Assembly: GCA_013151505.1 (NCBI GenBank)
Contig: JAADID010000175.1
Span: forward strand, 1 to 46,081
Length of the DNA: 46,081 nt
Reading direction: 5' to 3'
From: Chlorobiota bacterium
Lineage (GTDB): Bacteria; Bacteroidota; Bacteroidia; Bacteroidales; F082
Part shown: in pieces, positions 15,190 through 32,960 of the stretch
Position numbering within the stretch: the stretch's first letter is position 1
Layout: every line of letters starts with the position of its first letter
Position numbers and translations under genes: made by a program
The notes under the pieces: generated by a model
What the model saw: only the letters and a program-made list of their open reading frames with translations
What the model was told of the DNA's origin: nothing
Database searches by the model: none

Positions 15190-15429
15190 TTATATTTTAT
15201 GTTTCCTGTAAAGTTCGATACGGATCGGGCAATCACAAAAAGTTCTCTCATTGATTTTCGATTGAAACGGGCAGGGCGTTTTACTCTGGTTCAGGACAAA
15301 GTGTACATCGCAATCAAAACAGGAAAGCACTTTGCATAAATCTTTCCGCTCTCCAGACAGGCACGAAAAGTTTTTATCGCATTTAAATGCGGCCTGTTTA
15401 ATTTCATCTCTTATATATAGTCGTTCCAT
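15190..15429 (-). CDS. small cysteine-rich protein (8 Cys in 79 aa)
   Basis: The ORF lies 147 nt downstream of the 17-haem gene on the same strand. Cys pattern: C-x6-C-x9-C-x4-C-x2-C ... C-x11-C-x-C. No CXXCH motif and no signal peptide. Confidence 0.45.
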   Translation of the reverse strand: MERLYIRDEIKQAAFKCDKNFSCLSGERKDLCKVLSCFDCDVHFVLNQSKTPCPFQSKINERTFCDCPIRIELYRKHKI

Positions 15430-15576
15430 AATCTTTAACCTCTTTAATTTCTACAATCGCTTATGAGAGCTGTCTGTTGTTTTTGATAGTTACCGCATTA
15501 GTTATAAAATATTGTTTTCCCCTTGCTGTCCATTAAAGTTCATCTGGCCGTCAACAATTCAAATTCGTTCGCGCTT

Positions 15577-17901
15577 TTATTTTTGATTCAAATGAAAAAT
15601 CGTAGGATTTTCCCATTGCAGAGAATCAAGAACCTTACCGGCAAACGTTGAACCGCACGGTACCGAATTGCCGCCTCCGGCCCAGTCGTTGTTTTGCCAG
15701 GCCGCACCATGGCCGTGGCAGGTTTGACAACCGTTGCAGTAGGAATGCCATGAATAGGCATCCAACCAGTCCGCATGACAGACGTTACATAATCCTTCAC
15801 TACCGCCCCAATCAACAATGGTACCCGAGATCGTTATTTTTACCGCCCTGCTGGTGCCATAGGTATCCCATGGCGGCCCGGTCCATTGAGGGCCCGGTCT
15901 TACACCGTCGTCAACATAAGCAGTGCCGTCAACGTAATCACGGATCATATATGGGTTACCGACAGTATTGCTTGTTGTATATGAACCGTGCGGGTCATGG
16001 CAGTCGTTGCACAAAACTTCGTAATCCGGTGCACCCGAATAACCCGGCCAGTCTCTTTTCGTATCCACTCCGTGTGCAGCGTTCGTCCATGTATAATCCA
16101 CATACCAGGGCGTAGAAGTGTAATTACAACTTTCAAGACCCCGGAGCGCTATTGTCGGCCCCTTTACATTTGCAGGGAAGCCCGGATTATCGGGACCGGT
16201 TCCCCCGTTATGGCATGACAGGCAAAAACCGTTGCCGGTACCTGACCAGACAGTGGTTGCATTGAAAGGATCTATCAGTGGCGTGCTTGCAGAAGACGTG
16301 TGCGAGCCGTGGCAATTCAGACACTCCAGTTTTGCACCGCTGAAGGCCTGGTCGGCATCGCTTATATCGTGATGGCTGTTCACCCCGCGCATGGTTCCTT
16401 CGTTCCCGAAACAAACATCGCCATACCATTCGTTCCATTGCAAAGTTCCCAGAAAGCGTGTGGCAACATCAGGGGGTGTATTGCCGTTGCCGAAAGGATC
16501 GAACGGGTTGGTTAAAAACTGCGCTCCGTCGGCATCATGGCAACCCATGCAGAAATTGGAGACATCAGGATCGGTGTGTAACGAATCCGGTTTCAGGAAT
16601 GTTAAAATGCTGCCGTCATCAGGATCAATCAACTTTACGTAACCGTTTTTATGTCCGGACATGGAATGACATACTACGCAGTCGCTATTGTCAAGATTGC
16701 CACCATAATGCGCGTGTGCGTTACTTGCCGGAAACTCGGCCACGATGGCCCTCCTGCCTCCCACCGGAACGCCATCCAGGTTATCCTGGTTGTAACTGTG
16801 GCAACTTATACATCCTCCCTGTGCTACAAATTCATCGGCATGAGAGTGGCACGCTACGCAGTTAATATTCAGGTTGTGGACATGGTTGCCGCTGGAATTA
16901 TTCCTGTGATACTTTGTTGTAGTGTGGCAAACTTCGCAGATGCCATCGTAAGTATTGTCGCCATCGGCAAATGAGTTGGGCCCGGTTTCGGTAATAAACA
17001 ACACAGGTTTCAGCCCGCTGTTGGTTGTTTGCACCTCATCTTTCGTCATGTATATATTCGTAAGATTCGGGTTGTGGGTTTGATGGCATTGCTTGCAGCT
17101 TGCTCCCTGGTGACCGGTATAGGTATGGCAGGTGGTGCACAAATTGTTGTCGTTGGTCGTGCGCAGCAAATAGCCGTCACCCGTACCGCCGTTTGCCCCG
17201 CCCGAGGTGGTGTAATGAATGCCGTGGCAACTGCTGCATTCCACCTGGCCGCCGATAAGGATGATGTCAGGATTCTGCGGTGCAGCGTAAAAGCGTGAAT
17301 CTGTTGTAGGGTATGTTTTGCCTACCGGATGGCTCCCTTTGTTGTTCGGGTCATCCTGATAAGTACCCACGTTGCGGACCGAATGGCAATCCTTGCACAT
17401 GGCATCCTGATTGTTCGATGTCCTTAAAAAAGGCGAATAGGTGGAAACATGGGGGTTATGACAGGTTGAGCAGACAATTTCGTCATACATGACTTTTTCA
17501 GCCATTTTCGGGTCGGAGGGAAAATTGGCGCCATAATCCGCATTTACGATGGGTTTGTTCCACGCATGGGATGTGCCGCTGACTCCCGGTTCGGCACGAT
17601 CGGCATCTGAAAACGGGGTGCTGCTTGCCATTCCCACAGGATTGTGACAACTCATGCAAAGGTTGGCATTTCCCGCAACAGCCGTCAACTGGTCACCCGG
17701 CGCATTGTTCAAAACATGGCAGGTTAAACAGGGGATTGCATCGTTATAATGGGCGAAATCACCTTCCAGAGAATTTAACCTTTCCTTTAAATTATTGCCC
17801 GAATACTGGGAGCCCGCTTTCTTTACAATCAGAAAAGCCACTGCAATAATGAGCAGTACGGCAAACGGAAATATCGGAATATGGTATTTTGTATTTTTCA
17901 T
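15577..17901 (-). CDS. 17-haem c-type cytochrome with N-terminal membrane anchor/signal
   Basis: 774-aa ORF with an ATG start. I counted 17 CXXCH motifs. There is one N-terminal hydrophobic helix ('IPIFPFAVLLIIAVAFLIV'). The gene lies 25 nt downstream of the NHL gene. Confidence 0.9.
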   Translation of the reverse strand: MKNTKYHIPIFPFAVLLIIAVAFLIVKKAGSQYSGNNLKERLNSLEGDFAHYNDAIPCLTCHVLNNAPGDQLTAVAGNANLCMSCHNPVGMASSTPFSDADRAEPGVSGTSHAWNKPIVNADYGANFPSDPKMAEKVMYDEIVCSTCHNPHVSTYSPFLRTSNNQDAMCKDCHSVRNVGTYQDDPNNKGSHPVGKTYPTTDSRFYAAPQNPDIILIGGQVECSSCHGIHYTTSGGANGGTGDGYLLRTTNDNNLCTTCHTYTGHQGASCKQCHQTHNPNLTNIYMTKDEVQTTNSGLKPVLFITETGPNSFADGDNTYDGICEVCHTTTKYHRNNSSGNHVHNLNINCVACHSHADEFVAQGGCISCHSYNQDNLDGVPVGGRRAIVAEFPASNAHAHYGGNLDNSDCVVCHSMSGHKNGYVKLIDPDDGSILTFLKPDSLHTDPDVSNFCMGCHDADGAQFLTNPFDPFGNGNTPPDVATRFLGTLQWNEWYGDVCFGNEGTMRGVNSHHDISDADQAFSGAKLECLNCHGSHTSSASTPLIDPFNATTVWSGTGNGFCLSCHNGGTGPDNPGFPANVKGPTIALRGLESCNYTSTPWYVDYTWTNAAHGVDTKRDWPGYSGAPDYEVLCNDCHDPHGSYTTSNTVGNPYMIRDYVDGTAYVDDGVRPGPQWTGPPWDTYGTSRAVKITISGTIVDWGGSEGLCNVCHADWLDAYSWHSYCNGCQTCHGHGAAWQNNDWAGGGNSVPCGSTFAGKVLDSLQWENPTIFHLNQK

Positions 17902-17926
17902 AATTATCGCTGTTGACAGGTAAAAG

Positions 17927-19180
17927 CTATTTCAGAAAAATCATACGTCGTACTTTTCGGGAATCTTTCAGTTTAAGCTCATAAAAGTATATCCCGTTTC
18001 CGACCGGCTGCCCGTCATCACTGTTTCCATCCCAAAACAGGGCGCGTCCGTTGTCAGTATAATTTCCTTTTTTCAATAAGCCCGGATTGAACGTACGGAC
18101 AATCGTTCCTTTTAAGTTGTATATTTTGATTGTTACCTCTTCATCAACTGCCAAAATAAACGGAATCCAGGTGCCTTCCCTGAAAGGGTTCGGATAATTT
18201 TGCAATAGGTCACTGCTGACCGGCAGATTTTCATTCGGGTCATCCAGTCCGCCGGCTTTGGCGCTGAAAACATCTATCGAACCGTTATTCATTGAAGTTA
18301 TCCAGATTCGGTTACGTGAATCTATGGCAATATCCATCGGGGCGCTCAACTGTCCCGGCTCTGTTCCGAATTCACCGAACTTTGTAATAAAGCTGCCGTT
18401 TTCATCAAATATATTCACCGTTCCCAGCAGGTTATCAAGCACATAAACCCTGCCCCGGTTGTCAACAGCCAGCCCCTGGATTCTTGTGAGCTGTCCGTCT
18501 TCAAAACCGAATTCTCCGAAAGTATTCAGTAAATTGCCTTTTGTATCAAAGACGAGAACCTTTGCCGTAATCCCGTTTTCAGTTGCATCAAGCCCTGAAA
18601 CCGTGCCGCCGTGCTCGGCAACAAGTATCCTGGCGTTTTTTCTGTCGTAAGCTATGCCGGTTGGATAAGCCATAACATCGCTGCCAAATGTTCTGATAAC
18701 ATTTCCCGACAAATCCATGACGATAACCTGCTTTTGTTTGCTATCTACAACATAGAGTTTATTGTCGCCGTCAAACACGGCATCGGACGGATAAGTACAG
18801 TTTGTGTAAATTTCACTATCGCCTCCGTTGAAGTCAAACTTTTTGATGGCCCCAACCTTATTATCACTTACCACAAGCTGTTTATCATCATTTACGGCGA
18901 GGGCAAGCGGAAAGCCGCCGGAGTTCACTGTGCCGAGAAACTGTCCGGAAGTATCAAATTTAACAATCTCTTTCCTGAAAGCATCGGTTACATAAACAAC
19001 ACCGTCATCATCCAGTGCTATGCGTACCGGCGATTTCAGGCCTTCTGATATTCTGAACAAGAATCCGTTATTTCCGGCTGTTTGCTGGGCAAACAAATCG
19101 GGAGTGGATACCCATATTATCAGGAGCCAGCAAACAGCGGGAAAGAAATAACTGATGGAAAACGTAAATATCTTTTTCAT
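17927..19180 (-). CDS. NHL-repeat beta-propeller protein with T9SS-type C-terminal sorting domain
   Basis: NHL-like blades ('PTGIAYD..ILVAE', 'IQGLAVDNRGRVYVLDNLLGTVNIFDENG', 'PMDIAIDSRNRIWITS'). The C-terminal 91 aa ('QNYPNPF...IKIYNLKG...WDGNSDDGQPVGNGIYFYEL...MIFLK') match the Por_Secre_tail/FlgD-Ig pattern. The ORF track starts at a TTG (19189); the ATG at 19180 ('MKKIFTF') is the more likely start. Confidence 0.85.
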   Translation of the reverse strand: MKKIFTFSISYFFPAVCWLLIIWVSTPDLFAQQTAGNNGFLFRISEGLKSPVRIALDDDGVVYVTDAFRKEIVKFDTSGQFLGTVNSGGFPLALAVNDDKQLVVSDNKVGAIKKFDFNGGDSEIYTNCTYPSDAVFDGDNKLYVVDSKQKQVIVMDLSGNVIRTFGSDVMAYPTGIAYDRKNARILVAEHGGTVSGLDATENGITAKVLVFDTKGNLLNTFGEFGFEDGQLTRIQGLAVDNRGRVYVLDNLLGTVNIFDENGSFITKFGEFGTEPGQLSAPMDIAIDSRNRIWITSMNNGSIDVFSAKAGGLDDPNENLPVSSDLLQNYPNPFREGTWIPFILAVDEEVTIKIYNLKGTIVRTFNPGLLKKGNYTDNGRALFWDGNSDDGQPVGNGIYFYELKLKDSRKVRRMIFLK

Positions 19181-19217
19181 AGGCCTCAATTTTTGTGATC
19201 GAAATATGACCAGACGA

Positions 19218-19877
19218 TTATTTATTATGGCACGTCAGACATAAAGCGCTTCCTGCATTTGATATTCGGAGTGAGAGGGAAATAGTCTGTCCCGTAGCCA
19301 CATTGTGACATCCGGAACACCCCTGCGTATTTCTGCTGATGTGCGGATCGTGGCACGAAGTGCACTGCAAATACCCTGACTGGAGGAGATCCTCGGCAAT
19401 AGTACCGCCCAACCCTGAGGGAGTAGTAGCCGGGTCATATAACCCACCATCCGTAGCAGCCAGCGCCGAACTGTACTCAAATGAAATCGGATGATCATCA
19501 CGCAGGTCTGGTGTGATGTTTCCCCAGGTAACATACCAGGTGCCACCTGTGAAACCGCCGTGATTTTCAATGGCAACAGTTCCATCGTGACAGGAAAGGC
19601 ACAACTTTGAAAAGCCATTGGGCTGTCCGGGCGTGGCATCAAGTGTGTTGCTTGTGTAAACCTGAAAAGTTGCCGATGTAACCTCGTGATTCCATAAAGG
19701 CGAATCGTTAACTTCCATGTTTGCGTTGTGAGGCGTGTGGCATGGCCGGCAGGCCTCACCGCCACTCCACGAAGCGCCCGTAAAATCGTGGTGACTATTC
19801 AATAAACCCTGGCCGAAAGAAATGAAATATAAAAAGATCAGTAGTGAAGTAAAAATAGATCTCATAGTGGTTTTCAT
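19218..19877 (-). CDS. small pentahaem c-type cytochrome (paralog family B)
   Basis: 219 aa with a signal peptide. It has 5 CXXCH motifs (CRPCH, CLSCH, CTSCH, CSGCH, CLTCH). It is collinear with the 20113..20763 and 26260..26880 products. Confidence 0.9.
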   Translation of the reverse strand: MKTTMRSIFTSLLIFLYFISFGQGLLNSHHDFTGASWSGGEACRPCHTPHNANMEVNDSPLWNHEVTSATFQVYTSNTLDATPGQPNGFSKLCLSCHDGTVAIENHGGFTGGTWYVTWGNITPDLRDDHPISFEYSSALAATDGGLYDPATTPSGLGGTIAEDLLQSGYLQCTSCHDPHISRNTQGCSGCHNVATGQTISLSLRISNAGSALCLTCHNK

Positions 19878-19952
19878 TTGACTCTAATTTATTTGGTTTG
19901 AAATAAAAAATCTGCTTCAAAAACAAGTGGTTTTTTACGTAAAATCAGTGGA

Positions 19953-19967
19953 GCAAAAATCACGCCA
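19953..19967 (-). promoter_or_regulatory. candidate sigma-54 promoter TGGCGT-N5-TTGC
   Basis: The minus strand reads TGGCGTGATTTTTGC with exact GG-N10-GC spacing. It lies 76 nt upstream of the ATG at 19877. Confidence 0.5.
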
Positions 19968-20112
19968 AAATCACTATGTTTAAATAAAACAGATAGTAGT
20001 TTACCTATTGACAATCTTCTGTTTCGTGGTACAGAGATGTTTTTTCAATAAGTATTCAGGGATTATCTTTTTGCGTATTTGACGGTTTCCCCGTCCGACT
20101 GTATGAATCAGC

Positions 20113-20763
20113 CTATATGTTGTGACAGGTTAGACACAGTGCGCTGCCTTCATTGGACTTTCTTAGAAAGTAAGAAACAGTAGCGCCACGTCCATTCGTT
20201 TCATAATGTCTTTCGGGATTTCCCGAACCCGCAATATTGTGTACATCATGGCATGATGTACATTCCAATCTGCCGTTATCCAGCAAATCTTCTTCAATCG
20301 TACCACCCAAACCGGACATCGTAACGCTTGGATCGCGCAACTTTTTATCTTTCATTGCCAGGCTCGCATCATAGACAAAAGAGACCGGGTGACTATCTCT
20401 TATATAAATCCGGGGAGAATTATTTCCTTCGGGCGCCATAACAATGTGGTTGGAAGGAGCCACTGTTTCATCATGACACGAAAGACATTGCTTTGTTTTG
20501 CCGGAAGGAAGATTCGGATAACTTTTGACTGTACTTCTGGAATATAGCTGAAAAGTCGTAGCAGTATCATGTTGGTTCCAGTTAAGTGAAGAAGGTGGAC
20601 TCATATTGTCAGACTGGGTTATATGGCACGGTCTGCACGGATTATTACTGCTCCAGGAATTCCCTTTGAAAGAATGGTGTCCGAGTGGAAATTCCTGACC
20701 CATAATAGTTGATATAGGGTTAATTAACAACATAACCGCTATATACGCCAAGAATTTAGACAT
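20113..20763 (-). CDS. small tetrahaem c-type cytochrome (paralog family C)
   Basis: 216 aa with a signal peptide. It has 4 CXXCH motifs (CRPCH, CLSCH, CTSCH, CLTCH). It is the most diverged of the three paralogs. Confidence 0.9.
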   Translation of the reverse strand: MSKFLAYIAVMLLINPISTIMGQEFPLGHHSFKGNSWSSNNPCRPCHITQSDNMSPPSSLNWNQHDTATTFQLYSRSTVKSYPNLPSGKTKQCLSCHDETVAPSNHIVMAPEGNNSPRIYIRDSHPVSFVYDASLAMKDKKLRDPSVTMSGLGGTIEEDLLDNGRLECTSCHDVHNIAGSGNPERHYETNGRGATVSYFLRKSNEGSALCLTCHNI

Positions 20764-21218: not shown

Positions 21219-22523
21219 TTAATTTCTTTTATACTCTCTTCTGGCATGGCACCCGGTCAGGCAGGAACCTCCGTTTTGAGTGACCTGATATTTTATCGGC
21301 ATTTCCCAGTTTCCAAAGGCTACACTACCTGCTATAAGATGTTCATATTGCGATCCGTGCATTTTATGGCAATCCTTGCAACTTCGCCCTTTATTTCCAT
21401 GAATATGGGCATAATGCAGGTTTTGATCCCCGTTTCTGAAACCGGTAGCGGATTTTGTTGTCTTTTTTTCGATTAAATCCGTGTCGTGACAAGTAAAACA
21501 CAATGCAAAGGTGTCGGGTTGTGCAGGGGCATAAAATCCGACAGGAAAAGCGTCCTGTAACAACGAAGGGAAAACGGAGGCATGTGGAAAATGACATCCT
21601 GAACAACCGACAAGCTCAATAGCGCCATGAATGACTTTGCTTTTGCTCAATATCTGTTTCATGTTGCTTATCTTTTTCGTCTCTGTTTTAATTGTCCGGT
21701 TATGGCAACTCAAACATAACTCCTGATTTTCTTTCAGAAGAAAATACTCCTGCGGCGAGGCATGAGGTGAATGGCAATTCACACAGGTTTCTTTAATTTT
21801 AACTGCACCATGGACAACGGGTTTACTGTCAACAGATTCTTTCACATCATCATGGCAGTCAAAGCAAAGGGCGGAAATCGTCTGATCAAGCAAATACTTA
21901 TCTCTTGAGCCATGTACCTGATGACAATTCCTGCAATCGTCTTCAAACGGCGGGTGCAGGTTTTTTGTCTTCATAAGTTTACCGACATCCTCGTGACATG
22001 AAAAACACAGATCGGGCATGGCGGATTTGAGCAAAGACCGGTATTTTGACTGATGCGGGTTATGGCAGGACTGACAATTTCCTTCACTTACAGGCTGGTG
22101 TCCGTTATCATGTTTCGCTATTTCCTCGTCGTGACATTCAAAACACAGAGAGGCAACCGGGTTAGCCAGTAGCAAATGTGGGTTCGCGCTACTGTGGGGG
22201 GAGTGGCACATCAGGCATTCACCGCCCTCAACCGGTGCATGGATATACTTTTTGGTGTTCTCATCATGACACATATAGCATAAAGCCGGCAATTCATCGG
22301 CCATTTTAAAAGCTTTTCCTTCCTCGCCCGGATGGGGCTTGCCGGTTGGTTCGTGGCAGTAATCACACGATTCTTCGGCAGGCGGGTGGACATTCTTGCC
22401 AGCCATCAGGTCTCCATGGCAGTCAAGGCAGGTTTTTTCCGGCTCGTCGTTTTGTCCCATGCCTTCGATGCCAAAAACAAGCAGTAAAGAAAAGATAAAG
22501 ATCATCCAAAAGTATTTCCTCAT
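21219..22523 (-). CDS. 14-haem (+1 CX3CH) c-type cytochrome built of seven tandem di-haem modules
   Basis: 434 aa with a signal peptide. 14 CXXCH motifs alternate as xCxxCHxPH and LCxxCH(D/E). A C-terminal CLTGCH is present. The start is 1 nt after the barrel gene stop. Confidence 0.9.
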   Translation of the reverse strand: MRKYFWMIFIFSLLLVFGIEGMGQNDEPEKTCLDCHGDLMAGKNVHPPAEESCDYCHEPTGKPHPGEEGKAFKMADELPALCYMCHDENTKKYIHAPVEGGECLMCHSPHSSANPHLLLANPVASLCFECHDEEIAKHDNGHQPVSEGNCQSCHNPHQSKYRSLLKSAMPDLCFSCHEDVGKLMKTKNLHPPFEDDCRNCHQVHGSRDKYLLDQTISALCFDCHDDVKESVDSKPVVHGAVKIKETCVNCHSPHASPQEYFLLKENQELCLSCHNRTIKTETKKISNMKQILSKSKVIHGAIELVGCSGCHFPHASVFPSLLQDAFPVGFYAPAQPDTFALCFTCHDTDLIEKKTTKSATGFRNGDQNLHYAHIHGNKGRSCKDCHKMHGSQYEHLIAGSVAFGNWEMPIKYQVTQNGGSCLTGCHARREYKRN

Positions 22524-22524
22524 T

Positions 22525-26259: not shown

Positions 26260-26880
26260 TTATTTGTTGTGGCAGGTCAGGCATAATGCGCTGGCTGCAT
26301 TACTTTTGACAAGCAATTTAGCCACACCTGATCCGTTGTGTACATCATGGCAGGAAGCACACTCCAATTTCGTACCGAATAACATATCAGCATCTATGGT
26401 GCCGCCCAGACCGGAGTTTGTTGTCGTCGGGTCATACAATCCACCGTCGGTGCTTGCAAGGGTAGCATCATAAACAAACGATATCGGATGGTCATCACTC
26501 AAATCCGTACCAAGAAGTTCGTCACCGGAAATGAATGTAGTTCCATTGGTTTTTCCGCCGAAATTGTCAAGTGCAACGGTTCCGTCGTGACAACTCAGAC
26601 ACAATTTCGAAATCCCGTCAGGTTGCCCTACTGTAGCATCCAGTGTGGAGGATGAATAAACAGTATACGTCGCGGTAGATAACTGGTGGTTCCACAAAGG
26701 GGCATCAGTTACGCTAATATCAGCGTGGTGCGGTGTATGGCAAACAATGCAGATTTCGCCCGATGGGTTCCAGGTTTCGCTCGAAAAATCATGAGCAGAA
26801 CCGGAAATGTTCTGTCCCAAAGTAACCTGGGCCAAAAAAAGGATAAATAATCCTGCAAAAAGTTTAATCAGTGTTTTCAT
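26260..26880 (-). CDS. small tetrahaem c-type cytochrome (paralog family A)
   Basis: 206 aa with a signal peptide. It has 4 CXXCH motifs (CIVCH, CLSCH, CASCH, CLTCH). It appears monocistronic, lying between a sigma-54 promoter candidate and a terminator. Confidence 0.9.
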   Translation of the reverse strand: MKTLIKLFAGLFILFLAQVTLGQNISGSAHDFSSETWNPSGEICIVCHTPHHADISVTDAPLWNHQLSTATYTVYSSSTLDATVGQPDGISKLCLSCHDGTVALDNFGGKTNGTTFISGDELLGTDLSDDHPISFVYDATLASTDGGLYDPTTTNSGLGGTIDADMLFGTKLECASCHDVHNGSGVAKLLVKSNAASALCLTCHNK

Positions 26881-26950: not shown

Positions 26951-26967
26951 TTGCAAAGTTCGTGCCT
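26951..26967 (-). promoter_or_regulatory. candidate sigma-54 promoter aGGCACG-N4-TTGCAA
   Basis: The minus strand reads AGGCACGAACTTTGCAA with exact GG-N10-GC spacing. It is a near-perfect match to TGGCACG-N4-TTGCW and lies about 73 nt upstream of the ATG at 26880. Confidence 0.6.
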
Positions 26968-27278
26968 GTTGTGATGCTTAAAGAAATTTAGAATTAATCC
27001 AAATATAGTATGTTCAACAAAAAGCCAATGGCAGATAATCAAACGCGGCTTTACAAAAATATAAAAATGTCAATACATCCGTTGTTAACCCGGTATTTAT
27101 GAATTAATGAGGTTAAGATATTCAAATCTCCGGTTTTTTTAGCCGGCTTAAAATTATCAATATTAGGGGATGATACATATAACCTGTTAGAAATTTTTGT
27201 TAAAAATCAATTTTTTTTGGGTTCCTGATAATAAAAACAACAAAATATGTGTTTATAGCAGCAGCCGCAAACAAAACC

Positions 27279-27315
27279 GGGGCATTTCACCCAGGTGGCG
27301 TGGGGCATTTCACCC
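27279..27315. repeat. 14-bp direct repeat GGGGCATTTCACCC x2 (23-bp periodicity)
   Basis: Perfect copies at 27279..27292 and 27302..27315, immediately downstream of the sigma-54 activator stop codon (27325). Confidence 0.75.
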
Positions 27316-27324
27316 TATCCCGCA

Positions 27325-28704
27325 TTACAAACCGTATTTCTTTTTTTTATACCGCAGCGCATCCCTTGAAATACCTAACATTTTCGAGGCTTTGGTTTGA
27401 TTATACTCACTTTTCTGAAGAGCTTGCAGAATTAATTGTTTTTCCAGGGTTTCCAGTGAAATGCCTTCTTCGGGAATATCAAACTGATATGGGTTTCCGG
27501 TTTCAGGCGCCTGACCGGTAACCAAAGCTGTATTAATCTCACACGGCAGGTTATCCGGTCGGATTTTATCATTATTTTCAAGAATAATGGCGCGTTCCAT
27601 TACATTGCGCAATTCCCTTATATTACCCGGCCATTTATAATGAGACATCAGTTCCAGGGCATTACGCTCAACACCCTTTATTTTTTTGTTAAACTGACTG
27701 TTGAACAGCTCTATGAAATAGTCTATCAACAAGGGGATATCTTCTTTGTGTTCCCGAAGCGGAGGAATATCAATCTGAAATACCTTCAGACGATAATATA
27801 GATCCTCCCTGAAAGTTTTTTGCTCGATGGAGTTTATAAGGTCTTTGTTCGTGGCGGCAATAATGCGAATATCCACGGGAATTTCTGAAGTGCTTCCCAG
27901 ACGCTTTATTGTTCTGTTCTCAAGCACACTCAATAGTTTTACCTGTGTAGCGAGGTTTATTTCACCGATTTCATCAAGGAAAACCGTACCCCCTTCAGCT
28001 ATTTCAAAAAGTCCCTTTTTCATTTTGGCTGCATCCGTAAAGGCTCCTTTTTCATGCCCGAAAAGTTCACTTTCAAGCAGGGTATCGGGAAAAGTAGAAC
28101 AATTAATGGTCACAAAGGGATTTTCTTTTCGACTACTTTCGTTGTGGATTGCGCGCGCAAACAAATCTTTCCCTGTTCCGCTTTCGCCCAAAAGCAAAAT
28201 GGTGGTCGTTTCGGAACGGGCAATTTTTTTGGAAATCTGGACAATTTGTTTGAAGACCGGTGACTCGCCGATAATATTGTCGAAGGTAATTTTCTCCCGT
28301 TGCTGCCGCCTCAGCAACTTGATCTCGGTATTGATGTTGATGTTGTTTTTAATGTTTTCGATGAGCAGGTTAACTTCATCAAACGAAAACGGTTTGTTAA
28401 TGTATTCGTTTGCGCCGTTTTTCATCGCCGTCACAGCGGTATCAATTGAGCCATAGGCGGTCATAAAAACAATGATGGCATCCTCGTCTATGGATTTGAT
28501 TTTTGTAATCACTTCAAGTCCCTGAATGCCGGGCAGACGGTTGTCAACAAAAACAATGTCAGGATAATATTTCTCAAACAATTCGATTCCTTCCTCGCCT
28601 GTTTCCGCCAGGTAAACCCTGTAGCCTTTTACATTTAAATGTTTCTCGAACGACCACCGGATGAGTTTTTCATCGTCAATGACCAGGATTTTCAATAACT
28701 TCAT
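27325..28704 (-). CDS. sigma-54-dependent response regulator (NtrC family)
   Basis: REC domain ('ILVIDDE', 'IVFVDNRLPG'), an AAA+ domain with Walker A 'GESGTGKD' and a 'GAFTDA' loop, then a C-terminal Fis-type HTH ('NQTKASKMLGISRDALRYKKKKYGL'). Confidence 0.95.
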   Translation of the reverse strand: MKLLKILVIDDEKLIRWSFEKHLNVKGYRVYLAETGEEGIELFEKYYPDIVFVDNRLPGIQGLEVITKIKSIDEDAIIVFMTAYGSIDTAVTAMKNGANEYINKPFSFDEVNLLIENIKNNININTEIKLLRRQQREKITFDNIIGESPVFKQIVQISKKIARSETTTILLLGESGTGKDLFARAIHNESSRKENPFVTINCSTFPDTLLESELFGHEKGAFTDAAKMKKGLFEIAEGGTVFLDEIGEINLATQVKLLSVLENRTIKRLGSTSEIPVDIRIIAATNKDLINSIEQKTFREDLYYRLKVFQIDIPPLREHKEDIPLLIDYFIELFNSQFNKKIKGVERNALELMSHYKWPGNIRELRNVMERAIILENNDKIRPDNLPCEINTALVTGQAPETGNPYQFDIPEEGISLETLEKQLILQALQKSEYNQTKASKMLGISRDALRYKKKKYGL

Positions 28705-28738
28705 GGTTGTTTCACTAAATATGCCGGTTTTAAAAAAA

Positions 28739-30190
28739 TTATCCTGTTGGTAAAATTACATAGAATCTGGTCCCTTTTGATTCTTCACTTTCAACCCGGA
28801 TTCTGCCTTTGTGTTTTTCCACAATTTCCTTGGAAATAGCGAGGCCCAGTCCTGTTCCTTCTGTGTGTGTAGTATAAAACGGGTTAAATATATTCTCTAA
28901 AACGTCCTTTGGTATCCCCGTGCCTGTGTCCTCAACGATAATCGTCACCTTCTTGTTTTCCGGGTCGTAAGCTGTTTTAAAAGTAATAACTCCTTTTTGC
29001 GGTATGGCCCGAATGGCATTCAGACCCAGGTTGTGCAAAACGTTCTCTATTTTCTCATTATCGAACGGAAATAAGGGTATGTCTTCCTGTAATTCTTGTC
29101 TGAATTCAATTTTTTTGTTCCGGGTCTGGTTTCTGATAAAAAAGATCAGCGTCCTTATTACGTCGTTTATGTTGTTCATTTCCGGGTTGATGCCGCTGGG
29201 GCGTGAAAATCTCAACATGTTTGTAATGGCATTGTTCACCCGCTCTGCCTGCCGACGGATTTCTTCAAGTATTGGTTTGTTTTCATCTTCCGGTACTTGT
29301 CTGACCAGTATTTCGGCAGCATTGGCAATACCGGTCAGGGGATTTCTGATTTCATGTGCCAGTCTTGAGGCCATCTCGCCGATGGTGGCCATTTTCCTCT
29401 TGTCGTCCAGTTCTTTTTGATGATAAATCTGAAGCTGCTGCTGTGTTTTCTGAAAAGTGTCAACCATTTCGTTAAAGCTCTTTCCAAGCTCAGCAAGTTC
29501 CCTGGATTTTGGGATGGCAATTCGTTCGTTCAGGTTTCCTTTATTTATCCGGTTGATTGTATTGTGAAAACTGTTCAGAGACCTTCTGACTAAGCGGTAA
29601 TGCACCAGAAAGGCAGAAGCCAATACAAGAAAAACGATCATAGCCGAATACCCTAAACTAAAATTCCGCATTAAGGCAATATGCTGGTTTGTCCTTTCCA
29701 AAGTTATATCAAACACAAGCATGCCCAGATATTTTTTGGAAGAGTGGTGGCATTGATAACATTCCGGTGAGTTCCGAAAGCGGATATAAGCCCATAACCC
29801 GGGTTCATTACCATCCTTATAGGACTGTATGTAAGTATCTTCCGGTAATTCGGATATTTTTTTAAACCCTAAAATTTCTCTTGAAAGCGAGTCAGGTCCT
29901 GACAGATAGACGAGGCTGTCATTCGAATTGAATAAGTATAAGCGGTAAAAATATTTGTTTTTTTTAAAACTATCCAGCAACGGATGCAATGCCTTGCCGC
30001 CAACCTGCGAAATTGTTTGCAGGAACTGGGCATGCATTATGCTTAAGCTGCTGTAAATGTCCTCTTCTGCATGTTTGTACATCTCTCTCGACATGTAGCT
30101 GTTAAATAAGAAAAGCGCAAAAAACGACATGGTACTGACCACCAGGAAAATGGTAATACTAATGATCAGTCTGAATGAATACCGCTTCAT
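28739..30190 (-). CDS. sensor histidine kinase with CXXCH-containing periplasmic domain, HAMP, HisKA and HATPase_c
   Basis: 483 aa with two TM helices (aa about 8-30 and about 176-197) flanking a loop that carries 'SPECYQCHH' (nt 29747..29761). H-box 'RLAHEIRNPLTGI' and G-box 'DTGTGI...GTGLGLAI'. Confidence 0.9.
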   Translation of the reverse strand: MKRYSFRLIISITIFLVVSTMSFFALFLFNSYMSREMYKHAEEDIYSSLSIMHAQFLQTISQVGGKALHPLLDSFKKNKYFYRLYLFNSNDSLVYLSGPDSLSREILGFKKISELPEDTYIQSYKDGNEPGLWAYIRFRNSPECYQCHHSSKKYLGMLVFDITLERTNQHIALMRNFSLGYSAMIVFLVLASAFLVHYRLVRRSLNSFHNTINRINKGNLNERIAIPKSRELAELGKSFNEMVDTFQKTQQQLQIYHQKELDDKRKMATIGEMASRLAHEIRNPLTGIANAAEILVRQVPEDENKPILEEIRRQAERVNNAITNMLRFSRPSGINPEMNNINDVIRTLIFFIRNQTRNKKIEFRQELQEDIPLFPFDNEKIENVLHNLGLNAIRAIPQKGVITFKTAYDPENKKVTIIVEDTGTGIPKDVLENIFNPFYTTHTEGTGLGLAISKEIVEKHKGRIRVESEESKGTRFYVILPTG

Positions 30191-30205
30191 AATCCTGCTT
30201 TAGAA

Positions 30206-31891
30206 TCAGTATGATTTTCTCCTGTGATTTTTTCCATGGCATTTCAGGGTACACCTGCCTTTATAAGAGCCTAAATCCTCAAAATACAGTTGGCCCATGT
30301 TATTGGGGTGAACAATACCTATATCAAAATTTATCAAATGGGTATTGTTAGTGGTATTCCCCTGTGTACTGCTTATGCCGTGCGGATCATGGCAGGCATT
30401 GCAGGGTGCATCTTCCTCCGTAATATGTTTTTTGTGAACTTTCTCCTGAAAGTTGTTACCCCCACCGATGATCTCATTCCGGTCATGGCACTGATAACAC
30501 AGTTCATAAGCTGAATAGGATTCCGGGGTATAATCCGCCGTCGTATAATTGAACTTCAGTATCTGCGGATAAATTGATCCGTGGGGCCCTGCAGGCGAAC
30601 CGGTTCCGTCGCTGGCGTGGCAATCGGTGCAATAGATCAAACTGCTCTCGGTAAGAGGAGGAATCAGGCTGGGAACATCGGGGTTGGTTCCCGGTCCGGC
30701 GATGGGGTGAAAAGACGGGTTGCCCACGTCGAACTCAAGTCTGACATTGTTCTGTTCGATTTGTCTTGACGTCGGGCTGGCCGGTTTATCGGGGCTATCA
30801 GCATGACATCTGAAACATATTTCGTACTCATATTGCACCGGATCCACATCTCCTCCTGAAAGGTTAATGCCTTTCACACCTTTGTTAAATCCACGGACAT
30901 AAGGAGCATTGGCGCTTGTATTGTTTACTGCATGAGGGTTGTGACAGTCTTCGCACTCAACATGCTTGGTCAAAACCAGCGCTCCCTCCGAAGCATCATG
31001 AATTAGATTATAAGCATAGACATCATGGATATACGCTTTGGTCAATTGAAGCTGAATGTCAGTTGATGCCACATTTCCATTATGGCAATACAGACAATTG
31101 TTCTCCTCAGCCTGATAATTCAACAGTCGTTCGTTAAGTCCGGCATTATGCGGATTATGACAATTCTCGCAGCCATTTTCAGCTACCGTGGTGTAAGGCG
31201 TATGGAACCAGGGATCATTACCCGATCCGTTCCAGGTTGCAGTAGAGTTTCGGTGACTTGATGATATCCAGTAATTCTTGTCGTGACATTGTGTGCACAG
31301 ATTAGAATATTGGGTGGTGATCACAAGAAAATCGGTGTAAATATTTTTATGCGGATCATGGCAGGCCGTACATTGCAATTTATCATTCTCGAGGACAATG
31401 GGCCAGGAGATATTGACAGGATCCACCAATTCGCCGTCGGCAGCAGCCAGGGCAGAATTGTAAACAAACGAAACCGGATGGTCATCAGTCAGGTCGGTTG
31501 TCAGGTTGGTATTTCCGGCAGGCATGACAGTGATACCCCCGCTGAAATCAATTGGCACAGGGCGGCTTAAAACACTTCCCAGCGCTATTGTTCCATCGTG
31601 ACACGAAAGACAAAGTATGGATGAACCGTCGGGCTGACCAATAACTGCCTGCGTGGTTGTGCTGTTATACAACGAATAATTCAAACCCGGATCCTCCCGG
31701 TTCCATAATGGTCCCTTCGGAGCGCTGTTGTGAGGCGTATGACAAAAAATGCATATTTCCGTTTCACTCACTGCTTTGATCTGACCCGGCCCGCTGACCG
31801 ATAAATTGTGAACCGTATTCACAATCGACTGCGAAAACAACCACGCCGGGATCAAAAACAACAGTATTAATTTAATCCTTATCATTATCAT
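30206..31891 (-). CDS. 11-haem (+1 CX3CH) c-type cytochrome; N-terminal approx. 200 aa homologous to the small tetrahaem paralogs
   Basis: 561 aa with a signal peptide. It has 11 CXXCH motifs plus a C-terminal CTLKCH. The first four haem motifs and the 'DDHPVSFVY' box are collinear with the 206-219-aa cytochromes. The gene overlaps the upstream NHL gene by 20 nt. Confidence 0.9.
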   Translation of the reverse strand: MIMIRIKLILLFLIPAWLFSQSIVNTVHNLSVSGPGQIKAVSETEICIFCHTPHNSAPKGPLWNREDPGLNYSLYNSTTTQAVIGQPDGSSILCLSCHDGTIALGSVLSRPVPIDFSGGITVMPAGNTNLTTDLTDDHPVSFVYNSALAAADGELVDPVNISWPIVLENDKLQCTACHDPHKNIYTDFLVITTQYSNLCTQCHDKNYWISSSHRNSTATWNGSGNDPWFHTPYTTVAENGCENCHNPHNAGLNERLLNYQAEENNCLYCHNGNVASTDIQLQLTKAYIHDVYAYNLIHDASEGALVLTKHVECEDCHNPHAVNNTSANAPYVRGFNKGVKGINLSGGDVDPVQYEYEICFRCHADSPDKPASPTSRQIEQNNVRLEFDVGNPSFHPIAGPGTNPDVPSLIPPLTESSLIYCTDCHASDGTGSPAGPHGSIYPQILKFNYTTADYTPESYSAYELCYQCHDRNEIIGGGNNFQEKVHKKHITEEDAPCNACHDPHGISSTQGNTTNNTHLINFDIGIVHPNNMGQLYFEDLGSYKGRCTLKCHGKNHRRKSY

Positions 31892-32960
31892 TTAAACGTC
31901 CGTTAATAAGTTGAAAAACCTGAATGCGCGAATTATAACTATCTGCAACATAAATAAAATCGTTGTCATCAATGAATATCCCCGTAGGCAGCCAGAATTT
32001 ACCGTCTTTTCTACCCTGCCCGCCAAAATAATACAGGAAGTTACCGTTCTTGTCAAAAATTTGCACGGCATGAAATAAAGCATCAACAATATAAATGTTT
32101 CCAAACGAATCGGTTGCGATTCCTTTAGGCCGTGAAAAATAACCCGTAGCATCACCTATCTCTCCAAACATGCTTATAAACTCCCCCTCGCTGTTCAGTA
32201 TCTGTACCCTGAAGTTCATTGCATCAACTATGTAAACAAGTCCTGATTTGTCAATCCAGAGGAAAGTGGGGAAATTAAATTCAAGCGGGCCGTCGCCTCT
32301 TTTGCCGATATGCCGGATCACCTTGCCCTGTAAATCCAAAACCGTGATCCTGTGCAGGGCGGTTTCCACTACCCAAACTTCATTTTTTAAAGAGGAAAAA
32401 GCAATCCCTGTCGGTTGGTCTAATTTCACCGCAGGACAAAATTCAAGTAATTTGTCTGCACTTTCATCCTTATTCAATTTAAATACTTTATTAAGCCTTG
32501 ATTCGGTAAAAAGCAGGTCGCCCTGCGGCAAAGCACAAATGCCCACCAGTGAAGTATAGTGTTGATGAAACGACTGGGGGATTTCACCCACCCCATCCTG
32601 TACTTTCAACAAACTACCCAGTCCCTGGTCAAGTACCCAGAATGAATCCGGGTTTTCGGCAAAAACGGAAATAGGCTTGCTTAAAACTATTGCCTCCTTC
32701 TTGCCAAAAAAGAACTCTGCTATCCGGTCAACCAGATTAACCTCTACCTTACTTTTCTCCGTTGGGAACTTGGTTACCAGACGTAAACGATTGATCTCAA
32801 CCCCTTTTTGATCATAAATCCCTTCCGTTTCCTGTGCCCTCACCGGTAGAAGAAAAACAAGGTACAAAAGACAAAAAACAACCGCCTTTAAGGATAGTTT
32901 ACGAAAAGAATAAATACTCAAACCGTTCATTTGCTCCATAAAATGGATTTTAAAACTCAT
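31872..32960 (-). CDS. NHL-repeat beta-propeller protein (secreted)
   Basis: 362 aa with a signal peptide. NHL blades are present ('GYFSRPKGIATDSFGNIYIVDALFHAVQIFDKNGNFLYYFG', 'PTGIFIDDNDFIYVADSYNSRIQVFQL'). Confidence 0.85.
   Translation of the reverse strand: MSFKIHFMEQMNGLSIYSFRKLSLKAVVFCLLYLVFLLPVRAQETEGIYDQKGVEINRLRLVTKFPTEKSKVEVNLVDRIAEFFFGKKEAIVLSKPISVFAENPDSFWVLDQGLGSLLKVQDGVGEIPQSFHQHYTSLVGICALPQGDLLFTESRLNKVFKLNKDESADKLLEFCPAVKLDQPTGIAFSSLKNEVWVVETALHRITVLDLQGKVIRHIGKRGDGPLEFNFPTFLWIDKSGLVYIVDAMNFRVQILNSEGEFISMFGEIGDATGYFSRPKGIATDSFGNIYIVDALFHAVQIFDKNGNFLYYFGGQGRKDGKFWLPTGIFIDDNDFIYVADSYNSRIQVFQLINGRLNDNDKD

Follow-up and report, generated by a model that had tools for sequence, protein, structure and literature searches.

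A proposed OmcE-type extracellular electron-transfer gene cluster in the FCB group (Bacteroidota)

The window, by which we mean the whole 46,081-nucleotide stretch of DNA that was analysed, carries on its minus strand a run of 13 genes in the same direction between positions 15577 and 32960, made up of seven c-type cytochromes, three NHL propellers, one barrel and two regulators (Table 1). The original prediction had placed these ORFs with the right orientation and coordinates, although it counted 12 genes; its suggestion that the run might reach 15190 is not upheld, the cluster ending at 15577 and a 91-aa ORF at 14976-15251 overlapping a plus-strand ORF at 14460-15176. Its haem motif counts for the seven cytochromes (17, 5, 4, 14+1, 5, 4 and 11+1 CXXCH/CX3CH) agree exactly with ours, and one further CXXCH lies in the sensor kinase. 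Family scans gave Paired_CXXCH_1, Cytochrome_C7 and c3_2 matches in all seven cytochromes and NHL and DUF5128 (six-bladed propeller) matches in three proteins.

Table 1. Features of the cluster and the evidence on which each assignment is based.
Feature	Position	Strand	Evidence
NHL362, six-bladed NHL beta-propeller, Sec-type signal peptide	31872..32960	-	NHL 74 bits, DUF5128 51 bits
c561, cytochrome, 11 CXXCH + 1 CX3CH	30206..31891	-	PDB sequence matches, PF22113
HK483, sensor histidine kinase, HAMP-HisKA-HATPase	28739..30190	-	Pfam
RR459, NtrC/AtoC-type sigma-54 enhancer-binding response regulator	27325..28704	-	REC, AAA+ sigma-54 interaction domain, Fis-type HTH
Putative sigma-54 promoter and upstream conserved block	26953..27003	-	pattern match, conservation
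c206, OmcE-type tetrahaem cytochrome, Sec signal peptide	26260..26880	-	OmcE alignment
NHL356, NHL beta-propeller lipoprotein, lipobox LSISC (read from sequence)	25088..26158	-	NHL 54 bits, DUF5128
c189, pentahaem lipoprotein cytochrome, lipobox MISC	24509..25078	-	Paired_CXXCH_1 92 bits
barrel658, outer-membrane beta-barrel, ~28-30 strands	22525..24501	-	AF2 fold, PDB fold match
c434, MtrA-like cytochrome, 14 CXXCH + 1 CX3CH, Sec signal peptide	21219..22523	-	PDB/TIGR/phmmer matches
c216, divergent OmcE-like tetrahaem paralogue	20113..20763	-	alignment, locus distribution
c219, five-haem OmcE-like paralogue	19218..19877	-	alignment, identity to c206
NHL420, NHL beta-propeller, C-terminal T9SS type-A sorting domain	17927..19189	-	NHL 72 bits, TIGR04183
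c774, cytochrome, 17 CXXCH, single N-terminal hydrophobic anchor/signal sequence	15577..17901	-	motif count

As judged from sequence, the small tetra- and pentahaem proteins and the N-terminal third of c561 are OmcE homologues, an identity that the original prediction missed and that shifts the mechanism from a porin-cytochrome conduit to a conduit plus a probable polymerising cytochrome. The candidate major filament subunit is c206, which aligns end to end with the OmcE chains of both solved filaments, 7tfs_A (E 4.8e-25, residues 3-206 against 3-232; 7TFS is the OmcE filament, PMC12954529) and 9yuq_N (E 2.8e-23), 9YUQ being the OmcE bundle of D. soudanensis. Its eight cysteines and eight haem-ligand histidines are invariant in an alignment of 30 FCB-type and Geobacter-type sequences; an AF2 model, built without haems, is of low confidence (pLDDT 44) and lends the fold no independent support. 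The paralogue c219, 52% identical to c206, has an additional CSGCH between motifs 3 and 4, is kept in L001, L002, L004, L005, L006 and L009, and fits the "5-haem OmcE-like proteins" described previously (bioRxiv 10.1101/2025.10.22.684050), while c216 (38% identical to c206 and 45% to c219) has lost one distal histidine, TPH having become ITQ, and occurs only in the window and L002 among the loci compared. The larger c561 begins with an OmcE-like tetrahaem domain (residues 1-205; 7tfs_A E 1.2e-27 and 9yuq_N E 1.3e-23, neither match extending beyond residues 10-205) and continues with an extension (residues 206-561; 7 CXXCH and 1 CX3CH) that holds a region like domain II/IV of MtrC/MtrF (PF22113, 46 bits against a 30-bit cutoff). 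Over nine FCB loci it is 60-83% identical, with all eight histidines of the OmcE domain invariant.

The 658-aa protein, predicted to be porin-like, folds in AF2 as a confident large beta-barrel (mean pLDDT 87.9, pTM 0.67), and the PDB entry closest to it in fold is MtrB (6r2q_B, E 8.8e-9, TMq 0.45). No Pfam family matched it; it ends, as read from the sequence, in the aromatic residue typical of outer-membrane proteins, and its most conserved stretch is an inserted domain of ~80 residues (roughly 381-460). Its family has 2116 representatives at 50% clustering. Two cytochrome genes flank it closely, c189 ending 7 nt ahead of it and c434 starting 1 nt past its end. The cytochrome that may thread the barrel as its wire is c434, which matches chain A of 6r2q (E 1.3e-14), which we take to be MtrA of the Mtr complex, and also the TIGR03508 DmsE family (149 bits, under the 192-bit cutoff) and the GSU2203 family (125 bits); c189 is 35% identical to c434.

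Among the propellers, the NHL362 gene overlaps the start of the c561 gene by 20 nt, and in L001-L006, L010 and L011 the c561 homologue always has the NHL362 homologue immediately upstream; in L009, from Lutibacter, the latter was called as two fragments. The Lutibacter homologue of NHL356 has a lipobox-like cysteine too. NHL420 was expected to be T9SS-sorted, and its sorting domain passes the NCBIfam cutoff (TIGR04183, 34.1 bits against 23) and falls just under that of Pfam (PF18962, 25.4 against 27); cell-surface display is therefore predicted for it. NHL420 and the 17-haem c774 are accessory genes, found as a pair only in the window, L001 (where the contig end cuts the c774 gene) and L004 among the loci compared. 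We found no PDB sequence relative of c774 and could assign it to no NapC/NrfH family, the one signal being a weak TIGR03153 match (37 bits, residues 135-264). Paralogy within the cluster is plain, with four OmcE-like domains, three propellers and two MtrA-like cytochromes, but the three equal modules once read into it are not borne out: comparison across loci shows a single conserved core to which this accessory pair is added.

The two regulators form the dedicated two-component system that had been foreseen. HK483 has two TM helices around a ~150-aa periplasmic domain with one CXXCH (CYQCH), which is kept in all five homologues counted (L001, L002, L004, L005 and L006); its kinase core is AtoS/ZraS-like, and no PDB sequence relative of the sensor domain was found. 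RR459 shows the REC-Sigma54_activat-HTH_8 arrangement (Response_reg 91 bits, Sigma54_activat 232 bits, HTH_8 49.5 bits) and scores 459 bits against an AtoC model, under that model's cutoff. Just past its stop codon lies a terminator-like hairpin (27294-27277), and a putative sigma-54 promoter (GGCAC-N5-TTGC, 26966-26953) lies 86 nt ahead of the start codon (ATG) of c206, with a conserved semi-palindromic block, TATTTGGATTAATTCTAAATTTC, in front of it. Bare matches to the sigma-54 pattern are at chance level over the whole window (2.6 expected), so the argument for the promoter rests on position and conservation. The block with its -24/-12 element is conserved in L001, L002, L004 and L005, all with the kinase-regulator pair, and not in L003, which is without it; among the loci aligned the element thus tracks the two-component system, in keeping with the haem-sensor/sigma-54 control originally suggested. 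The kinase would use its c-type haem to sense the redox state of the periplasm and the activator would act on this promoter, and together they probably switch on expression of the filament and conduit genes.

A search for the gene order recovered a ten-gene core across FCB-group loci, syntenic in six Bacteroidota MAGs (Bacteroidales), Lutibacter profundi LP1, a Calditrichota-like contig and a Chlorobi/Ignavibacteria-like MAG, Lutibacter profundi LP1 being a cultured carrier. Many uncultured bacteria of the FCB group, and at least one cultured, probably pass electrons to something outside the cell or receive them from it. The window had been thought to hold no quinol dehydrogenase, and none of the NrfD, NapC/NrfH and cytochrome-b families was found among its scanned ORFs, which were all but a few small ones. 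Candidate quinol oxidoreductases adjoin the cluster in relatives: Lutibacter has an NrfC/NrfD-like pair there, and L003 a CbcL-like fusion.

We propose, as the reading that we think rather probable, that the cluster is an FCB-group version of the OmcE-type apparatus for extracellular electron transfer. The candidate system seen originally thereby gains the backing of homology (OmcE homologues, and an MtrA-like cytochrome beside a large barrel) beyond motif counts. Its weakest step is the first, in which quinone-pool electrons would enter or leave through a dehydrogenase encoded outside the window, with the membrane-anchored c774 perhaps making the connection across the periplasm to the inner membrane. 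Next, c434, c189 and barrel658 would form a trans-outer-membrane conduit and/or a secretion or anchoring pore, as suggested by MtrA homology, by homology to two cytochromes of the Geobacter omcE cluster and by a gene spacing of 1-9 nt. By analogy with OmcE, whose homologue it is, we infer that c206 polymerises outside the cell into a haem wire, which would be held together, as in the solved OmcE structure, by His-haem ligation between subunits; c219 and c216 would serve as alternatives to c206, and c561 is a candidate adaptor, base or tip subunit, coupling the filament to the conduit or capping it. The three propellers may be partners in assembly or stabilisation, one as a lipoprotein, one paired with c561 and one exported by the T9SS. 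Electrons might flow outward, to minerals, humics or partner cells, or inward. The physiological role is disputed even in model systems, and in D. ferrophilus the NHL-associated cytochrome clusters could be deleted without a phenotype on Fe(III) oxide (PMC9769857).

Conservation of the eight histidines is not proof of polymerisation because it is equally expected of a monomeric bis-His tetrahaem cytochrome, and the locus could instead encode a porin-cytochrome conduit only, the barrel, c434 and c189 forming an MtrAB/Pcc-like trans-outer-membrane wire without a filament, and the OmcE-like proteins acting as monomers, either periplasmic shuttles or loosely bound cytochromes of the outer surface. 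We regard this as unlikely, if a serious competitor, and it agrees with the likeness of c434 to MtrA and of the barrel fold to MtrB. It agrees also with the signals of the OmcE-like proteins, which are of Sec type only: family scans found no T9SS domain in them and reading of the sequences no lipobox, and since Bacteroidota proteins usually reach the cell surface by one of these two means, the proteins are without an obvious export route. Moreover, OmcE-like tetrahaem cytochromes occur widely, and not all are necessarily nanowire subunits (bioRxiv 10.1101/2025.10.22.684050). However, the barrel and the nearby propeller lipoprotein together give the complete genomic signature by which the OmcE authors selected nanowire-competent homologues, and the way in which c561 conserves an OmcE domain joined to a second haem module is hard to square with a freely diffusing shuttle. 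In addition, c206 is far more conserved (67-93% identity in the best 120 of more than 7800 relatives, the named ones from several phyla) than the barrel (34-62% for most relatives among the matches listed), which would fit a protein whose whole surface is constrained.

Somewhat less likely again is that the same architecture is used inward, for electron uptake from Fe(II) minerals, metallic iron, cathodes or syntrophic partners. The hydrothermal-vent origin of Lutibacter profundi would suit such use, which is modelled on proposals for two systems whose parts lists resemble ours: Uet of Ca. Tenderia (a tetrahaem cytochrome, a barrel, two NHL proteins and an undecahaem cytochrome) and DFE_448-451/461-465 of D. 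ferrophilus (NHL proteins and a 14-haem cytochrome). Multihaem wires can run both ways, bidirectional transport having been reported for the Mtr complex (PMC9473688) and conduction in either direction suggested for MtoA/MtrA (PMC10734462), yet the closest tested relatives, the OmcE clusters of Geobacter and Desulfuromonas, sit in metal and electrode reducers. A multihaem enzyme system confined to the periplasm and acting on a soluble substrate, e.g. a nitrogen or sulfur oxyanion, with the barrel as an ordinary substrate porin and the propellers as enzymes, is already disfavoured and most improbable: propellers of the NHL/SGL type include enzymes (there are weak matches here of SGL, arylesterase and Vgb-lyase-like kinds) and several cytochromes weakly match NrfB/NrfH models, but the motif count found no CXXCK, every catalytic-family match in the Pfam/NCBIfam-type scans lies far under its cutoff, the specific homologies point to OmcE, MtrA and omcE-cluster partners, and the barrel, with its ~30 strands and a conserved domain inside, greatly exceeds a diffusion porin in size.

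The OmcE-type apparatus that we favour was not recognised as a described system in the original prediction, which does not hold for the core, the parts of which are those of the published "omcE gene cluster", a cytochrome, an NHL propeller lipoprotein, a large barrel and a tetrahaem subunit; in its minimal form that cluster has two multihaem cytochromes, beta-propeller lipoproteins, OmcE and a large barrel, and none of the five phyla listed for it belongs to the FCB group (bioRxiv 10.1101/2025.10.22.684050). When the window proteins were compared by phmmer with the omcE locus of G. sulfurreducens (L007), homologues were present here for four of the five component types. The 370-aa cytochrome MHC370 matches c434 at 4.3e-87, MHC330 matches c434 at 9.8e-35, and c189 is homologous to both of these multihaem cytochromes (1.1e-23 and, for MHC330, 8.1e-16); the NHL lipoprotein matches NHL362 (1.8e-46) and NHL356 (3.8e-28), and OmcE matches c561 (9.9e-31), c206 (8.1e-29) and c219 (9.5e-21). 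Between barrel658 and the 752-aa barrel protein of the Geobacter cluster no sequence similarity was detected, and the two hold like positions. What is still new is the FCB-group version of the cluster with its extra parts: an OmcE-domain/8-haem fusion paired with its own propeller (no c561 counterpart was found in L007), a five-haem paralogue of the OmcE type, a T9SS-sorted propeller with a membrane-anchored 17-haem cytochrome next after it, and a conserved putative sigma-54 promoter ahead of the OmcE-like gene.

Thirteen co-directional minus-strand ORFs occupy positions 15577-32960 of the window (see the table), one more than the twelve genes of the original prediction, whose haem-motif counts for the seven cytochromes (60 CXXCH and two CX3CH motifs) came out identical on recount, with one further CXXCH in the kinase HK483; for the possible extension of the run below 15577 nothing was found in its favour. 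Searches against Pfam and NCBIfam bear out both the multihaem c-type domains and the three six-bladed NHL propellers that had been read from the sequence. Gene spacing suggests four transcription blocks: NHL362-c561-HK483-RR459, c206 followed by NHL356-c189-barrel658-c434, c216, and c219-NHL420-c774, where labels give the type of product (c for cytochromes, HK and RR for the two-component system) and its length in residues. The NHL362 and c561 genes overlap by 20 nt, and the gaps within the NHL356-c189-barrel658-c434 group are 9, 7 and 1 nt. NHL420 is the only cluster product to match a T9SS sorting-domain family in the Pfam and NCBIfam scans; its score of 34.1 bits against TIGR04183 (cutoff 23) places a type-A C-terminal sorting domain on this propeller, and against PF18962 it reaches 25.4 bits, slightly short of the 27-bit cutoff.

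Coordinates of the cluster genes and of other features in the window and in related loci
Feature	Locus	Position	Strand	Description
NHL362	window	31872-32960	-	NHL propeller
c561	window	30206-31891	-	cytochrome, OmcE-like N-terminal domain + 8-haem module
HK483	window	28739-30190	-	HAMP-HisKA-HATPase kinase (Pfam, NCBIfam)
RR459	window	27325-28704	-	REC/sigma-54/HTH_8 regulator (Pfam, NCBIfam)
c206	window	26260-26880	-	OmcE-like tetrahaem cytochrome
NHL356	window	25088-26158	-	NHL propeller, lipobox read from sequence
c189	window	24509-25078	-	multihaem cytochrome, lipobox read from sequence
barrel658	window	22525-24501	-	large beta-barrel (AF2)
c434	window	21219-22523	-	MtrA-like cytochrome, 15 haem motifs
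c216	window	20113-20763	-	divergent OmcE paralogue
c219	window	19218-19877	-	five-haem OmcE-like paralogue
NHL420	window	17927-19189	-	NHL propeller + T9SS type-A sorting domain
c774	window	15577-17901	-	17-haem cytochrome, N-terminal hydrophobic segment
Semi-palindromic block	window	26953-27003	-	directly upstream of sigma-54 -24/-12 element
Counterpart of semi-palindromic block	L001	about 7500-7540		
Second two-component system	window	11272-13135	-	HisKA_2/HWE-type kinase + LuxR-type regulator, outside cluster
GSDH/DUF7133 beta-propeller	window	36860-38011	-	separate from and unrelated to cluster; marginal NHL match
AbiEi/AbiEii pair	window	1764-3391	+	probable type IV toxin-antitoxin or abortive-infection system
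AbiEii (PF08843)	window	2567-3391		130 bits
NrfC/NrfD-like genes upstream and ResB/CcsB downstream	L009	2920-6768 and 18564-20618		
936-aa protein	L003	15425-18235	+	19 CXXCH
ChaN-like / c554-like genes	L003; L006; L001; L003	2590-3483; 187-1071; 369-860; 3594-4130	;; -; -	

Ordinary genes make up the flanks, among them those for ArgRS, an SDR, an EamA transporter, a glutathione peroxidase and the second two-component system. The idea that the cluster is an island acquired recently by transfer was rejected, as its GC content is about that of its flanks and the SDR neighbour is also adjacent in L002, one of six Bacteroidota MAG loci (L001-L006) compared here. Rfam and tRNA scans across the window were empty. 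The AbiEi/AbiEii pair lies where the GC content of the window is lowest (33-35%), the AbiEii start overlapping the end of the upstream 268-aa ORF.

By sequence, c206 is a full-length homologue of solved OmcE filament subunits. In a PDB sequence search its residues 3-206 align with residues 3-232 of 7tfs_A (E 4.8e-25), from the Geobacter sulfurreducens OmcE filament (PMC12954529), and it also matches 9yuq_N (E 2.8e-23), from the OmcE nanowire bundle of Desulfuromonas soudanensis (Petersen et al. 2025, bioRxiv 10.1101/2025.10.22.684050); residues 10-205 of c561 match the same two structures (1.2e-27 and 1.3e-23, respectively). Eight cysteines and eight histidines are invariant in an alignment of 30 FCB-type and Geobacter-type sequences, the histidines (H30, H48, H51, H98, H131, H178, H181 and H204 in c206) being the four of the CXXCH motifs and those at the N-terminal H-D, TPH, DHP and D-x-H positions. 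This Cys/His set is also retained in c219 and in the N-terminal domain of c561, which is 39% identical to c206. At 52% identity to c206 and with an additional, fifth CXXCH separating motifs 3 and 4, c219 fits the description of the 5-haem OmcE-like proteins of uncultured bacteria, regarded as a possible new nanowire family (bioRxiv 10.1101/2025.10.22.684050). Geobacter OmcE matches c219 at 9.5e-21 and c216 at only 3.7e-6; c216 (38% identity to c206) has lost the TPH histidine equivalent to H51, so that the distal ligand of its first haem is replaced (CHTPH to CHITQ...M). Either a changed axial ligand and potential of that haem or decay of this gene copy could lie behind the loss.

Whether OmcE filaments are physiologically necessary is contested in Geobacter itself (PMC13194489; PMC11077965). 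The conserved bis-His ligands are compatible with polymer and monomer alike, and a haem-free AF2 model of c206 built from the 30-sequence alignment has a mean pLDDT of 44, too low for a reading of the fold. The OmcE-like proteins carry no T9SS domain in family scans and no lipobox by reading of their sequences.

The cluster was compared with the omcE cluster of G. sulfurreducens (L007; GSU0618 region). The gene order there is ResB, CcsB, a 370-aa 9-haem cytochrome, a 330-aa 8-haem cytochrome, a 361-aa NHL lipoprotein, OmcE, a 752-aa protein without Pfam family, and glycosyltransferases. In phmmer comparisons the 370-aa cytochrome matches c434 at 4.3e-87, the 330-aa cytochrome matches c434 at 9.8e-35 and c189 at 8.1e-16, and the NHL lipoprotein matches NHL362 at 1.8e-46 and NHL356 at 3.8e-28. 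The cytochrome matches are not mere CXXCH bias, since unrelated multihaem pairs inside the window reach no more than about 30-45 bits. The smallest omcE clusters always combine a pair of multihaem cytochromes and a pair of beta-propeller lipoproteins with OmcE and a large beta-barrel (bioRxiv 10.1101/2025.10.22.684050), and every one of these component types is present in the window. Four of the five types are homologous by sequence comparison and the barrel is the exception. The core does not amount to a system of a new kind; the original prediction had not recognised the combination as a described one. Shared with the omcE cluster are a tetrahaem subunit that is homologous over its full length and keeps every haem ligand, two homologous MtrA-like multihaem cytochromes and a homologous NHL propeller lipoprotein, and an adjoining large barrel without Pfam family. 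The two differ in the barrel (658 aa in the window, 752 aa in Geobacter, with no detectable sequence similarity), in gene order, and in the glycosyltransferase block, which is absent from the window. The window in turn has extras: an OmcE fusion (c561) that has a propeller to itself, one paralogue with five haems and one that has lost a His, a T9SS-sorted propeller, a 17-haem anchored cytochrome, and an embedded two-component system with a haem sensor and a sigma-54 regulator.

AF2 models barrel658 with confidence (mean pLDDT 87.9) as a beta-barrel of about 28-30 strands, into which a domain of some 80 residues is inserted. Among PDB folds the model comes closest to MtrB (6r2q_B; E 8.8e-9, TMq 0.45, 10% identity), a predicted resemblance at the level of a large barrel only, and it has no Pfam family and no MtrB_PioB match. 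Against the Geobacter 752-aa protein no similarity was found by phmmer, by hhalign (probability 0.3) or with a 234-sequence HMM, a weak negative in that the Geobacter side is a single sequence. Because this homology test was negative we do not file the cluster as a full member of the omcE clusters, and we treat the two barrels as equivalent in position and size class only. The inserted small beta domain (residues about 381-460) is the most conserved part of the protein among 234 homologues, with a mean top-residue frequency of 0.57-0.69 against roughly 0.45 for most other parts, and may be a plug, or a docking site for a cytochrome or propeller. A profile search finds 2116 representatives of the barrel family at 50% clustering, and a word-indexed search finds 144 close relatives, all 'hypothetical' where named; the named ones come from MAGs labelled Bacteroidales/Bacteroidota, KSB1 and Chlorobi.

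Genome loci were located with a 9-sequence barrel alignment. The order NHL362-c561-(HK-RR)-c206-NHL356-c189-barrel-c434 is common to all six Bacteroidota MAG loci. A c219 homologue follows c434 in five of the six and is missing from L003, which also lacks the HK/RR pair; among the loci compared, NHL420 and c774 are confined to the window, L001 and L004, and c216 to the window and L002. The core cluster is also present in a Calditrichota-like contig (L010, with kinase and sigma-54 regulator), in a Chlorobi-labelled MAG (L011) and in the cultured flavobacterium Lutibacter profundi LP1 (complete genome CP013355.1; L009). More than 7800 relatives of c206 were found, the best 120 of which are 67-93% identical, those named among these 120 including members of Calditrichota, Chlorobi, KSB1, Gemmatimonadota and Oligoflexia; for c561 the identity over nine loci is 60-83%. 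In conservation the two cytochromes far exceed the barrel, whose listed relatives are mostly 34-62% identical. Petersen et al. report OmcE homologues with cluster context in Thermodesulfobacteriota, Pseudomonadota, Aquificota, Campylobacterota and Nitrospirota, and in no FCB phylum (bioRxiv 10.1101/2025.10.22.684050), and a lake study mentions unspecified 'putative PCCs' in Bacteroidetes MAGs (PMC6344600). Full-text literature on OmcE with Bacteroidota or Ignavibacteria yielded no description of the FCB cluster. We conclude that it represents a widespread FCB-group lineage of OmcE machinery with several lineage-specific additions, not described in the literature searched. Its taxonomic placement is based on the T9SS domain and on how the MAGs with syntenic loci are titled.

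A Rhodocyclaceae-labelled OmcE homologue (P0255) was considered as a Uet-type locus and proved instead to sit in a Geobacter-type cluster with glycosyltransferases. Contigs L012 and L013, binned as Rhodocyclaceae, carry an omcE cluster of the Geobacter type with an NHL protein, an OmcE 65% identical to that of G. sulfurreducens, a 752-aa barrel and glycosyltransferases, which indicates either mis-binning or lateral transfer of a whole cluster.

Family scans of the scanned window ORFs found no quinol dehydrogenase, as the original prediction had noted. For c774, with its 17 haems and single N-terminal hydrophobic segment, the only NapC/NrfH-type match is to TIGR03153 (37 bits, cutoff 134; residues 135-264, away from the anchor), and neither a Pfam family of that type nor a PDB sequence relative was found. 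In Lutibacter the genes immediately upstream of the cluster encode a 4Fe-4S protein like NrfC, a membrane protein of the NrfD family and a monohaem cytochrome c, and a fused ResB/CcsB gene for cytochrome c maturation lies downstream, making them candidates for a link to the quinone pool and a dedicated maturation system, both lacking in the window. In L003 the 936-aa protein encoded downstream of the cluster, at the position of NHL420 and c774 in the window, has a weak cytochrome b561/Ni_hydr_CYTB domain (24.8 bits, below cutoff) and would be a CbcL-like fusion. Different inner-membrane modules thus appear, by inference, to be plugged into one outer apparatus according to lineage. Some relatives, unlike the window, carry immediately upstream of the cluster genes for haem-binding proteins of the ChaN type (PF04187, about 210 bits) and for small tetrahaem proteins resembling cytochrome c554.

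The embedded regulators are, judged by their domains, an NtrC-family sigma-54 two-component system with a putative -24/-12 target promoter. Two TM helices of HK483 enclose a periplasmic domain of ~150 aa with a single CXXCH that is kept in all five homologues counted; no PDB sequence relative of this sensor domain was found. RR459 is an AtoC/NtrC-type sigma-54 activator by domains, and a terminator-like hairpin 3' of its gene is the one informative result of the sigma-70 and terminator scans. The putative promoter, GGCAC-N5-TTGC, stands 86 nt upstream of c206, directly preceded by the semi-palindromic block TATTTGGATTAATTCTAAATTTC, which may be a regulator or IHF site, unusually close to the promoter. 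Bare matches to the sigma-54 pattern occur in the window at chance frequency; the argument rests on position and co-conservation: element and semi-palindrome are kept in L001, L002, L004 and L005, where the two-component system is present, and not in L003, where it is absent.

In the model best supported here, barrel658, c434 and c189 would form a trans-outer-membrane conduit, an anchoring pore or both, in whichever direction electrons may flow. The major extracellular polymerising subunit would be c206, of which c219 and c216 would be variants, with c561 as a putative adaptor or terminal subunit; the propellers would be assembly or stabilising partners, one of them carried to the surface by T9SS, and the whole would be under redox-sensing control through sigma-54. 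A more far-reaching combination of these ideas, which we put forward tentatively and consider rather doubtful as a whole, is that FCB bacteria (Bacteroidota, Calditrichota, Ignavibacteriota, KSB1) widely build OmcE-type nanowires with a toolkit more complete and self-contained than that of Geobacter, with c561 as the long-sought initiator, anchor or tip coupling the filament to conduit or minerals, the 5-haem paralogue as a 'leaky' wire variant, and assembly triggered by a periplasmic haem redox sensor via sigma-54. Were it true, major and mostly fermentative or organotrophic sediment phyla would join long-range extracellular electron transfer.

To our knowledge, bacterial cytochrome nanowire structures come from Desulfuromonadia only, and Bacteroidota and related FCB phyla now appear to have a large family of OmcE-type machinery. 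In sediments, peat and wastewater these phyla are abundant, and they are commonly classed as fermenters; if extracellular electron transfer works in them, the view of their role in iron, humic and carbon cycling would be altered. The OmcE authors had no tip or initiator candidate in their operons (bioRxiv 10.1101/2025.10.22.684050), and c561 is a concrete candidate for filament start, end or docking. The cluster merits attention for its breadth, for this candidate for initiation or termination, and for its cultured carrier: L. profundi LP1, a cultured strain whose complete genome includes the cluster, makes the question directly testable.

Other known systems close to the cluster include the conduits MtrCAB of Shewanella and Pcc/Ext of Geobacter, in which, as here, the gene for a periplasmic MtrA-like cytochrome adjoins that for a large outer-membrane barrel and a haem protein lies outside (locations that in our cluster are predicted). 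In a PDB sequence search c434 matches 6R2Q chain A, which we take to be MtrA, at 1.3e-14, and c561 has a segment like domains II/IV of MtrC. Unlike MtrA, however, c434 has 15 haem motifs and not 10, and scores 149 bits against the DmsE/MtrA family TIGR03508, short of the 192-bit cutoff; barrel658 differs from MtrB in having ~30 strands instead of 26, in its inserted domain and in failing to match MtrB_PioB; and an MtrC/OmcA-type decahaem lipoprotein is absent from the cluster. As read here, the cluster works like an Mtr/Pcc conduit, yet it falls below the MtrA and MtrB family thresholds.

Uet, proposed for electron uptake in Ca. Tenderia electrophaga and some Gallionella, can be likened by its parts list only: the extracellular tetrahaem protein UetA, the barrel UetC with 28 strands, the NHL propellers UetH and UetI, encoded immediately before the extracellular 11-haem cytochrome UetJ, and cytochrome c maturation genes close by, as in the Lutibacter locus. 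In contrast to the window, Uet lacks an MtrA-like cytochrome and includes a cupredoxin, a prolyl isomerase and three trihaem c7 proteins. By the family scans the 13 products of our cluster include no chaperone-type protein and no counterpart of the Osc folding factor OscH, which is presumably a prolyl isomerase.

Similar parts are found in Desulfovibrio ferrophilus IS5, where NHL propellers are co-transcribed with multihaem cytochromes, one of 14 haems (DFE_0448-0451 and DFE_0461-0465), in a proposed outer-membrane complex that the propellers would stabilise as beta-barrels do in iron reducers; no barrel gene is mentioned for the two clusters in the passages considered. Deletion of NHL-associated cytochrome clusters in this organism gave no Fe(III) oxide phenotype (PMC9769857). 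OmcS is reported to have no sequence or fold similarity to OmcE (PMC9473688). The osc (omcS-companion) operon of G. sulfurreducens (Shen et al. 2025, Cell Chem Biol 32:239), as summarised in PMC13194489, follows the same logic as our cluster, joining a filament cytochrome to a channel-like secretion complex (OscEFG) and a protein with an effect on filament morphology (OscD).
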